Below, one piece after another: positions 4,593-11,001 of a stretch of DNA of 15,995 nt (the stretch's first letter is position 1; each line of letters opens with the position of its first letter). The position numbers and the translations under genes were made by a program. Below the pieces are notes generated by a model that saw only the letters and a program-made list of their open reading frames with translations, did no database searches and was not told where the DNA came from. This DNA comes from a virus (lineage: Duplodnaviria > Heunggongvirae > Uroviricota > Caudoviricetes). The stretch spans positions 1 to 15,995 of IMG/VR virus record IMGVR_UViG_3300048573_000051; one strand, written 5' to 3'.

Positions 4593-5084
4593 ATGAACAT
4601 AATTGAATTGAAAGAAACTATTGATTATGATCTCTTCGCAGGAGCCTTCTATTTACTAAAGAACAACTGCAGATATAGAAGAATATTTCCAAACGAAGAT
4701 GGTTATATCATATTTTATAAAAATAGTAAAAGATTAAAATTTAAAGCTAATAAGTTAGCAATTGAGTTTGTGCAAAATATTGATGTGCAAAAAGATAAAG
4801 TAGTATTGCACAAAAACTTAGATGATACTGATTATAGATATATTAATTTAAAACTAATATCTAAGAAAGTGCATAACACAATTAAAGAAGCACATAGGAA
4901 TTTATCTGGTGCTTTAAAGCTCCAGCCTCATGCAAAGGATGTCTTCTCTTATGTTTTAACTTGGAAAGAAAACTCCAAAGATAAAATCTTAGTTGTGCAA
5001 GACATAGTAATAGCCAGAAGGTTATATACAAGGTTGCAACTCAAATATGCTAAGATTTTAAACAAGTTCTGTGTATTTGATTGA
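4593..5084 (+). CDS. Degenerate HNH-like protein (163 aa)
   Basis: ANKLAIEF...VVLHKNLDDTDYRYINLKLIS aligns by eye with the HNH pattern (AHRL..E...VDHINGD.TDNR.ENLRLV), with several conserved residues substituted. Confidence 0.6.
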   Translation: MNIIELKETIDYDLFAGAFYLLKNNCRYRRIFPNEDGYIIFYKNSKRLKFKANKLAIEFVQNIDVQKDKVVLHKNLDDTDYRYINLKLISKKVHNTIKEAHRNLSGALKLQPHAKDVFSYVLTWKENSKDKILVVQDIVIARRLYTRLQLKYAKILNKFCVFD

Positions 5085-5121: not shown

Positions 5122-5126
5122 CAAGG

Positions 5127-5222
5127 CTTCTATGTAAATTAAGTTATAGACTTTACGTAAATTGCACTATTAAGCGGTGCAACCCTGCGCAAAGACATTA
5201 ACAACTTAACCCTACATAGAAG
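5127..5222 (+). ncRNA. Candidate ncRNA domain 1: long rod hairpin with two identical AA/CCC internal loops
   Basis: Nested pairings 5127-5136/5213-5222 (10 bp), 5139-5145/5203-5209 (7 bp), 5151-5159/5186-5194, 5162-5168/5176-5182; starts at the predicted +1. Confidence 0.7.
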
Positions 5223-5232
5223 TAAACCTTCA

Positions 5233-5336
5233 TATGTTAGTCTAATTGCCCTTTCACTCCTTTCAGCGTTAGATGCTTCGGTATGAGCTGGACTAGTAAC
5301 CAGCACTAACACACAGTTAGTTCTTGCACTAACATA
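5233..5336 (+). ncRNA. Candidate ncRNA domain 2: five-way junction
   Basis: Closing stem 5233-5241/5328-5336 encloses four hairpins: 5242-5272, 5273-5284 (cUUCGg), 5287-5304, 5305-5321. Confidence 0.7.
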
Positions 5337-5352
5337 AATTTGTACACCATAC

Positions 5353-5382
5353 TTGACAAAAGACATTACTTATGTCTATAAT
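5353..5382 (+). promoter_or_regulatory. sigma70 promoter of the tRNA cluster with an operator-like inverted repeat
   Basis: TTGACA-18 nt-TATAAT; AGACAT-N5-ATGTCT at 5361-5377. Confidence 0.8.
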
Positions 5383-5406: not shown

Positions 5407-5607
5407 ATGAAATGCGTAATTTGTAACCAATACTTCAAACGTTCAGTCTTTAACCAGACTTTTGAATGCGATGCATGTCAAGCGATTGTATTAGATGAAT
5501 TTGATTCTGAAATGCAAGTTGAAGTGGAATTGCTAAGGCATCCTTCAGGTAAAACTCAAGCTGTTATCTATGATGATATGAACGATGATACCGGGGATTC
5601 AATTTAA
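5407..5607 (+). CDS. Small zinc-ribbon protein with acidic C-terminus (66 aa)
   Basis: CVIC...CDAC; D/E-rich tail; directly after a promoter; weak SD. Confidence 0.7.
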   Translation: MKCVICNQYFKRSVFNQTFECDACQAIVLDEFDSEMQVEVELLRHPSGKTQAVIYDDMNDDTGDSI

Positions 5608-5610
5608 TAT

Positions 5611-5684
5611 AGCGGGTAAGGTGGTCACTACTGCAGTCTCATAAGCTCGCAGCATCACTGGTTCGAATCCAGTACCCGCTTCCA
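5611..5684 (+). tRNA. Atypical tRNA with CAT anticodon (Met/fMet-like; Ile2 not excluded)
   Basis: Acceptor AGCGGGT/ACCCGCT, T-arm ACTGG-TTCGAAT-CCAGT, loop CTCATAA, encoded CCA; shortened D-arm and bulged anticodon stem. Confidence 0.75.
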
Positions 5685-5691
5685 AATTTAA

Positions 5692-5766
5692 GCTACTATC
5701 GTCTATCGGTTAGGACATCTGGTTTTCATCCAGACAAGCGGAGTTCGATTCTCCGTAGTAGCTCCA
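5692..5766 (+). tRNA. tRNA-Glu(TTC)
   Basis: GCTACTA/TAGTAGC acceptor, TCTGG-TTTTCAT-CCAGA anticodon arm, TTCGATT T-loop, CCA. Confidence 0.93.
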
Positions 5767-5775
5767 GAGCAAAAT

Positions 5776-5918
5776 AATGGAACTGGTAGGATCATCCATT
5801 CAACGGTTGTTAGTGACGATGGGGGCTATCGGAACTTTCAAATAAACGTGTATTCCGCAACTACGTTAAAAGTTCGGCTGCTCAATCGCCAACGGAAAGA
5901 GCATAAGGTTACAGTTGG
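5776..5918 (+). ncRNA. Candidate pseudoknotted ncRNA between tRNA-Glu and tRNA-Asn
   Basis: Hairpins 5776-5800, 5817-5831, 5832-5875 (inner 5845-5867), 5879-5903; loop CCAAC (5889-5893) complementary to GTTGG (5914-5918). Confidence 0.5.
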
Positions 5919-5926
5919 ATAAATTT

Positions 5927-6002
5927 TGGCATATAGCTCAGTTGGTAGAGCGTGAAACTGTTAATTTCAATGTCCGTGGTTCGAGGCCACGTATGCCAGC
6001 CA
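5927..6002 (+). tRNA. tRNA-Asn(GTT)
   Basis: TGGCATA/TATGCCA acceptor, AGCTCAGTTGGTAGAGC D-arm, TGAAA-CTGTTAA-TTTCA, G73, CCA. Confidence 0.95.
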
Positions 6003-6008
6003 AATAGT

Positions 6009-6084
6009 GTATCTGTAGCTCAATTGGCAGAGCATTGGATTCCAAATCCAAGGGTTAGTGGTTCAAGTCCATTCGGGTACGCCA
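6009..6084 (+). tRNA. tRNA-Trp(CCA)
   Basis: GTATCTG/CGGGTAC acceptor, TTGGA-TTCCAAA-TCCAA, GGTTCAAGTCC, G73, CCA. Confidence 0.93.
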
Positions 6085-6089
6085 AATAT

Positions 6090-6180
6090 AGGTGATTGGT
6101 TGAGAGGCCGAAAACAGCGGATTGCTAATCCGTAGGGTAGTAATACTGCCCCGTGCGTTCGAATCGCACATCACCTGCCA
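6090..6180 (+). tRNA. tRNA-Ser(GCT)
   Basis: AGGTGAT/ATCACCT acceptor, GCGGA-TTGCTAA-TCCGT, long variable arm GGGTAG/CTGCCC, TTCGAAT, G73, CCA. Confidence 0.93.
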
Positions 6181-6186
6181 ATAAAA

Positions 6187-6262
6187 CTGAGTGTAGCCTA
6201 GATAGTCAGGCACTTGATTTGGGGTCAAGACCACGGGTATGCGAGTTACCCCATTCAGACCA
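6187..6262 (+). tRNA. tRNA-Pro(TGG) with non-canonical D/T loops
   Basis: CTGAGTG/CATTCAG acceptor, CTTGA-TTTGGGG-TCAAG, T-loop TGCGAGT, A73, CCA. Confidence 0.85.
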
Positions 6263-10969: not shown

Positions 10970-11001
10970 ACCCTGAGTTAATCTCAGGGTTATTGTTGTT
11001 T
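10970..11001 (+). terminator. Hairpin (terminator or 5'-stabilising stem)
   Basis: ACCCTGAG-TTAAT-CTCAGGGT then TATTGTTGTTTT (interrupted U-tract). Confidence 0.55.

Follow-up and report, generated by a model that had tools for sequence, protein, structure and literature searches.

The 96 nt at positions 5127-5222 of the window (the whole stretch of 15,995 nt that was analysed, which comes from a 59-kb IMG/VR virus record) form a single rod on the + strand. This rod is a genuine structured RNA domain, new and well supported, and it contains two copies of an internal-loop module that was previously undescribed. Judging from the predicted ends, it would be the 5' domain of a non-coding RNA, or of an operon leader, of roughly 185 nt. 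A total of 38 distinct full-length rods were found in about 50 viral or metagenomic contigs, and the phages that carry them are a clade of virulent freshwater phages on Comamonadaceae (Limnohabitans/Curvibacter-type) hosts.

The preliminary description of this DNA had proposed a 96-nt rod of four stacked helices. Its letters and coordinates were confirmed on re-reading the window sequence, and the four-helix structure was borne out by RNAfold as well as by covariation in the 38 distinct homologues. The minimum free energy (MFE) of the predicted fold was -26.7 kcal/mol, compared with -11.4 +/- 2.8 kcal/mol for dinucleotide shuffles (z = -5.44), and none of 200 shuffles was as stable. From the base to the tip, the rod consists of helix P1 (10 bp, 5127-5136/5213-5222), module A (5137-38/5210-12), helix P2 (7 bp, 5139-45/5203-09), a central bubble of 5x8 nt (5146-50/5195-5202), helix P3 (4+4 bp, 5151-54/5191-94 and 5156-59/5186-89), module B (5160-61/5183-85), helix P4 (7 bp, 5162-68/5176-82) and the apical heptaloop AUUAAGC (5169-75). 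A linker, UAAAC (5223-5227), whose conserved form is nAA(C/U)C, joins the rod to the 3' domain. The 5' strand of helix P3 reads CUUU, a mismatched A and CGUA, and in the RNAfold structure this helix is interrupted by the A5155/C5190 mismatch. The central bubble is open in the centroid structure, varies in sequence and is the least conserved part of the rod.

In the window, each module opposes AA to CCC, and both modules have the form 5'-UA[AA]U / 5'-A[NNC]UG, with a U.G wobble at a distance of one pair and with the AA and the last C invariant. Two identical AA/CCC loops had been reported initially; the part of that claim which stands is that the same module occurs twice with an invariant AA, while CCC turned out to be merely the commonest version of a family NNC. 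The long strand measures 3 nt in all 38 rods and takes the forms CCC, ACC, GAC, AAC, CAC, GUC and GGC, so that the first two bases vary and the third, C, is fixed (38/38 in each module). Its first base can be C, A or G in either module, and two outer loops have U there. The AA of the short strand was present in 38 of 38 rods in module A and, by script, in 37 of 38 in module B, where the sole exception (L073) is a parsing shift. When each rod was folded as a single sequence, the MFE structure showed a 2x3 loop at the inner module in 32 of the 38 and at the outer module in 26. The GUA/UGC of helix P3 beside module B is nearly invariant: the three pairs concerned (G-C, U.G and A-U) are almost constant, and only the G-C pair changes, to A-U or U-A.

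The spacing of the modules is also conserved. On the 5' strand, the distance from AA to AA is 23-24 nt in 36 of the 38 rods, and in the two exceptions (L092 and L014) the central bubble is enlarged by an insert of 12 or 13 nt. The approximately 21 stacked layers between the modules correspond to about two A-form turns, from which we infer that the modules face about the same side of the rod; a fixed spacing of this kind would fit a two-site platform. At the tip, the UUAA of the heptaloop is invariant (38/38) within the pattern N-UUAA-R-M, the observed forms being AUUAAGC (20 rods), AUUAAGA (11), AUUAAAA (5) and UUUAAGC (2). This UUAA is self-complementary and agrees, as a sequence match only, with the YUNR U-turn. 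It was also observed that the last base of the heptaloop (5175) and the first long-strand base of module B (5183) change together, being C/C in 16 sequences and A/A in 9, which is probably a clade effect. Elsewhere in the phage genome, further copies of the module occurred at shuffle level only, so that they mark no regulon.

The loci were gathered by a pattern scan of viral contigs and by two scans anchored on flanking proteins and not on the RNA, and the rods among them were confirmed with a covariance model, R1, built for the rod; a metagenome scan added nine further stretches, eight of which are rods according to R1. The window itself matches R1 with 96.9 bits (E = 6e-20). All members share the architecture helix P1-module-helix P2-bubble-helix P3-module-helix P4-heptaloop, with a sigma-70 promoter directly 5' and a domain with a CUCCUUUC loop 3', and each genome carries one copy of the rod. 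Two cultured phages are included, Limnohabitans phage DC31 and Curvibacter phage P26059A (E = 9e-8 for the rod of the latter). The window is syntenic with DC31, and the intergenic region that bears the rod aligns as DNA although it is non-coding. The rod has been retained in both cultured phages despite an intergenomic similarity between them of only 9.9% (PMC12195039). In prokaryotes, a search with the strict two-module pattern through 185,579 bacterial and archaeal species (one genome each) revealed no rod; a single pattern match in a Bacteroidota MAG is due to chance, given that it is devoid of helix complementarity.

The evidence for the structure is also comparative. With a MAFFT-only alignment of 15 sequences, RNAalifold gave the same rod, with compensatory changes in 13 of the 26 pairs, 96.4% of the cells able to pair and a covariation score of 0.503 (slid controls, 0.04-0.08); none of 500 shuffles reached this score. 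The homologues fetched by means of the zinc-ribbon protein encoded downstream constitute a set without selection on the RNA sequence. The 37 distinct rods obtained in this way showed 93.8% of the cells paired, compensatory changes in 19 of 26 pairs and a score of 0.574 (slid controls, 0.055-0.081; 0/500 shuffles). Over the rod alignments, the values were 94% of the cells, 19-20 of 26 pairs and a score of 0.57-0.58, versus 0.06-0.10 after sliding. Most of the compensatory changes sit in helices P1 (7/8 modelled pairs), P2 (5/7) and P4 (5-6/7). Loss of the loops and pairings in homologues had been named in the preliminary description as what would speak against the rod; both were kept in the 38 distinct homologues.

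The G-U pairs had been taken to favour the + strand, and this was also corroborated: among the 36 distinct homologues having letters at those positions, the U5158.G5187 wobble was kept in 34 and U5168.G5176 in 29. Since the opposite strand would have C.A mismatches at these places, the conserved wobbles identify the + strand as the one that folds. The rod is thus a + strand RNA structure under selection, whose helices may change provided that the pairing stays. As regards coding capacity, neither strand has a reading frame that traverses the rod in almost all of the homologues (a span of 38 codons is open in one pair only). A 75-aa minus-strand ORF at 5139-5366 was discarded because it is not conserved, with frame-shifting indels in the homologues.

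The rod is preceded by promoter P1 (5093-5121, + strand), which consists of a -35 box TTGAAA (5093-98), a 17-nt spacer and an extended -10 element TGcTATAAT (5113-21), that is, 11/12 matches plus the TG. Five bases separate the end of promoter P1 from the rod, and transcription is predicted to start at about 5126-5128, on the first paired bases. The placing of the rod at a promoter +1, as originally suggested, is therefore supported by a near-consensus extended -10 promoter directly 5' of it. The distance between promoter P1 and the rod is fixed across the homologues with the exception of DC31, where the rod is not at +1 because a 29-nt insert (L002:3192-3220) separates it from the -10 box; this insert could form a small hairpin of its own. 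Upstream lies a gene for 163 aa (4593-5084), a weak relative of HNH_3/phrog_99 homing endonucleases, whose stop codon is found 8 bases before the -35 box of promoter P1, inside the upstream block that is conserved. P26059A has two other genes between this relative and the RNA.

Downstream of the rod, the same RNA continues in a 3' domain (5228-5309, + strand), with co-varying helices, an unpaired CUCCUUUC (5257-64) and a terminal hairpin of 5 bp (5287-91/5300-04) followed by ACUAA, so that the RNA would reach approximately position 5309. The 3' domain is present at every aligned rod locus (29 distinct sequences; in L034 the loop is without CUCCUUUC), and the rod never occurs without it. The converse is not true: two rod-less relatives, L107 and L108, keep the 3' domain, with hairpins that have CUCCUUUC loops and with the terminal hairpin. 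Inspection of these loci (L107:2200-2420 and L108:1590-1770) showed that the promoter is retained together with the terminal hairpin and that in L107 the place of the rod is taken by a pair of hairpins, both of them with a CUCCUUUC-type loop. Given that L107 and L108 keep the 3' domain without the rod, the rod is best regarded as a 5' extension that one clade has added to an older RNA, dispensable for the core role of that RNA. By mutual information, the loops of the rod and the 3' domain showed no Watson-Crick covariation with each other, the top pairs being all nested helices or clade effects. An alternative pairing of the 3' strand of the rod with the next helix is possible in the window; on inspection, it was found not to be conserved.

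Between the 3' domain and a second promoter (5305-5345 in the window), the homologues present between 0 and about four hairpin units, which have GCACUAA at their end, and the number of these units differs even among close phages. Promoter P2 (5353-5382, + strand) is a perfect sigma-70 match, with TTGACA, 18 nt and TATAAT, and is found in most of the genomes, being absent from L008 and L017. It is overlapped by the inverted repeat AGACAT-N5-ATGTCT, which looks like an operator for a DNA-binding regulator; in homologues, a different inverted repeat, TGTAGA-N4-TCTACA, was observed at the same position.

The constant downstream neighbour of the RNA is a small acidic zinc-ribbon ORF (5407-5607, + strand, 66 aa). 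The rod is upstream of it in 47 of the 49 loci having this ORF, the other two being the rod-less L107 and L108. The protein has the pattern CxxC-x14-CxxC followed by an acidic tail, with Y9, K11, F15, P46 and G48 invariant; neither Pfam nor PHROG gave a matching family, and the AlphaFold model of the protein was poor (pLDDT 62). With 5 K/R against 13 D/E, so acidic a protein is unlikely to bind RNA and is a poor candidate for the partner of the rod. The zinc-ribbon ORF is followed in the window by a tRNA array (tRNAs at 5692-6262) and then by packaging genes. Just before the array, the sequence at 5611-5681 is tRNA-like, with a CAU anticodon; its 25.8 bits are below the Rfam tRNA gathering score of 29, and ARAGORN did not call it. 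In P26059A, the RNA and the zinc-ribbon ORF are located just before the terminase and structural module and a tRNA array is not annotated, so the tRNAs are not the constant partner of the RNA. No intrinsic terminator was found on the + strand from 5127 to about 10970, the first one being near 10970.

To explain the rod, we favour, at about even odds, a two-site docking platform, a role already suggested in the preliminary description, that would also close the 5' end of the RNA. The helices need only pair and the unchanging unpaired bases are duplicated at a fixed spacing, a combination typical of specific recognition. According to this model, the RNA would be transcribed by the host sigma-70 RNA polymerase from the strong promoter P1, and the fixed unpaired bases would serve as contact surfaces. 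The two modules, lying on about the same face of the rod, would dock a protein of host or phage origin, either as a dimer or as two monomers, or else one protein with two domains. In addition, the predicted burial of the 5' end in helix P1 would allow the rod to shield the RNA from 5'-end-dependent decay. As an add-on to a more widely conserved 3' domain, the rod would tether or stabilise that domain and would not carry the core function. Several points weigh against the docking platform: the modules match none of the described protein-binding motifs that were compared, conserved unpaired A's suit RNA-RNA (A-minor) contacts equally well, the constant neighbour protein is strongly acidic, and two related lineages manage without the rod. 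A bolder proposal, which we consider possible but rather doubtful, is that the rod and the CUCCUUUC-loop domain make up one phage RNP device of an undescribed kind. In that device, the twin modules would trap a dimeric host factor involved in translation, RNA decay or transcription, or would ride RNA polymerase, and the other domain would present a copy of the ribosomal anti-Shine-Dalgarno sequence; the RNA would then be a host-takeover RNA and not a simple leader.

Other explanations have to be weighed against the docking platform. The rod could belong to a cis-acting, polymerase-modifying leader like HK022 put or nut. As it emerges, the rod, alone or together with the 3' domain, would bind RNA polymerase, which would then resist Rho or pausing along a long untranslated stretch that comprises the tRNA array and further non-coding RNA, and on into the genes for packaging and structure. 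In agreement with this, the rod is promoter-proximal and heads a rightward unit whose + strand has no intrinsic terminator between 5127 and about 10970; the untranslated RNA downstream, tRNAs included, exceeds 1 kb; in P26059A the RNA comes just ahead of the terminase and structural module; and only transcripts from promoter P1 would carry the rod, promoter P2 having its operator-like inverted repeat. On the other hand, the consensus promoter P2 of most genomes makes the downstream genes transcribable without any leader, there is no terminator that needs to be overcome, and rod-less relatives exist, so that we regard a leader of this type as unlikely. We assign the same low probability to an RNA-RNA role, in which the A's and the heptaloop would dock on the 3' domain, or the RNA would self-assemble through UUAA, or a U-turn would seed pairing with a target. 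Such a role would agree with the invariance of the YUNR-like, self-complementary UUAA and of the AA bulges, and with the fact that the rod is always accompanied by the 3' domain. Against it, the mutual information analysis showed no Watson-Crick covariation between the rod loops and the 3' domain, a conserved complementary segment was not found within the RNA, and a kiss of four pairs, all of them A-U, would be weak.

A little less probable still is that the rod is an RNase III processing signal, with the upper stem, bubble and lower stem of T7 early RNAs, or a plain 5' stabiliser without a specific partner. Its approximately 32 paired positions do form two stems flanking a central bubble, and helix P1 is predicted to bury the 5' end; yet generic recognition leaves the invariant AA, C, U.G wobble and UUAA unexplained while the helices vary, and the bubble, the place of T7-type cuts, is conserved least of all and can accommodate a 13-nt insert. 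We give very little credit to the idea that the rod mimics a known site as a decoy, whether the thrS C-loop, the S8 site or, at the tip, an anticodon arm like that of tRNA-Leu(UAA). The asymmetric loop with a 3-nt long strand and S8-like strand sequences would speak for mimicry, as would a 7-nt loop whose second base is U and whose bases 3-5 are UAA; however, the modules depart from the C-loop signature and from the S8 hallmarks, as detailed below, and no module-like site was found in the known helices of the rRNA of the E. coli rrnB operon. Finally, a chance fold or a DNA-level signal without function has practically no probability: only the AT-rich context would suggest it, and it is refuted by the covariation, with strand-specific G.U pairs, and by conservation across very divergent phages.

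The interest of the rod goes beyond the phages in which it was found. Few structured RNAs of phages have a known mechanism, and this one is small, shows strong covariation and has a clear anatomy, with two module copies at a fixed spacing and an invariant loop. Moreover, two cultured phage-host pairs bear it (DC31 on Limnohabitans sp. DCL3 and P26059A on Curvibacter sp. IMCC26059), so that its function is open to direct experiment. If a partner were found, the rod would define a new RNA-protein recognition motif and would show in what way abundant freshwater phages employ RNA to handle their hosts; even without a partner, it is a clean new RNA family for Rfam.

Comparison with known RNAs was also carried out. 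Over 5127-5222, Rfam 15 gave nothing at the gathering threshold or at E <= 10, its only matches being tRNAs and two chance snoRNA matches. Inspection, with Rfam equally silent, indicated no fit to the k-turn, the 11-nt tetraloop receptor, UAA/GAN, SRP RNA, Y RNA, T-box stem I, the MS2-type operator, the NAD+ riboswitch or the hairpin ribozyme. The rod resembles 6S RNA in being rod-like with a central bubble and paired ends. Nevertheless, 6S RNA is a rod of about 180 nt with a large conserved bubble, whereas the present rod has 96 nt, a variable 5x8 bubble and no Rfam match, and its conserved parts are the side loops and not the bubble. The HK022 put RNA, of about 70 nt, forms two hairpins, and lambda nut is composed of boxA and the small boxB hairpin; like them, the rod belongs to a phage RNA that folds just 3' of a strong promoter heading a long operon, but in most genomes a second promoter bypasses the rod element. 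The U1A polyadenylation-inhibition element and the thrS operator contain two recognition copies per RNA, which bind two protein subunits. The same two-site logic is the one proposed here for the rod, although the sequences are unrelated and U1A is eukaryotic.

The modules had been likened to the C-loop (23S rRNA, the thrS operator, viroid loop 26), with which they share an asymmetric loop in a hairpin stem and a 3-nt, often C-containing long strand. The sequences did not support that label, for the short strand of the modules has 2 nt (the invariant AA), the first base of the long strand is variable and its last C is fixed. In three dimensions, C-loops are also defined by two base triples that the long-strand bases make with the flanking pairs, and by a higher helical twist. 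Described C-loops have one unpaired short-strand base and usually C as the first long-strand base (PMC9516175; C-50 construct in PMC2441787). The rod is thus unlike them in its AA short strand, in a conserved C that is last and not first, and in one closing pair, which is U-A and not A-U. It should be mentioned that the C-loop of viroid loop 26 is the recognition site for the protein VIRP1 (PMC9516175). The binding site of S8, in helix 21 of 16S rRNA and in the spc operon mRNA, where it is a translational operator, resembles the modules markedly in the sequence of its strands: the rod has U-AA-A-U / A-NNC-UG where S8 has U-AA-G-U / A-UAC-UG (PMC4176348). Both have an odd-numbered asymmetric loop, and the UAAA / CUG of the modules would, depending on the register, be compatible in sequence with adjacent A's beside an A-U pair, as in the A595-(A596-U644) arrangement of S8. 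The hallmarks of the S8 site are an invariant A642, the G597-C643 pair and the (G597-C643)-U641 triple or an isosteric set (PMC4176348). At the position equivalent to A642, C was found in 18 of the 25 outer modules and in 22 of the 25 inner ones; where S8 has G597-C643, the modules have an invariant A opposite an invariant C; and the stem above the module has 7 bp and not 5, so the S8 site was rejected as an identification.

Concerning genomic context, phage non-coding RNAs beside tRNA genes include the species 1 and 2 RNAs of T4 and GOLLD/ROOL, and their function is unexplained. The nearest parallel in layout is sRNA1/ncRNA1 of Pseudomonas phage PAK_P3, which also lies beside tRNA genes and in the same order, namely sRNA1, promoter, small CDS and tRNAs (PMC10914365). 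Homology with sRNA1 (85348-85430) was discarded, since it gave no R1 match and its GC-rich sequence is unlike that of the rod. Furthermore, ncRNA1 arises by processing of a 3' UTR and lacks a separate start site (PMC10914365), whereas the present RNA is predicted to follow its own promoter. The PAK_P3 region at 85348-86578 (L111:1349-2580) contains, in this order, sRNA1, a promoter, the small CDS, a second promoter, a tRNA, sRNA2 and a tRNA, with sequences unrelated to ours. The layout shared with PAK_P3 suggests a recurring design of phage cassettes.
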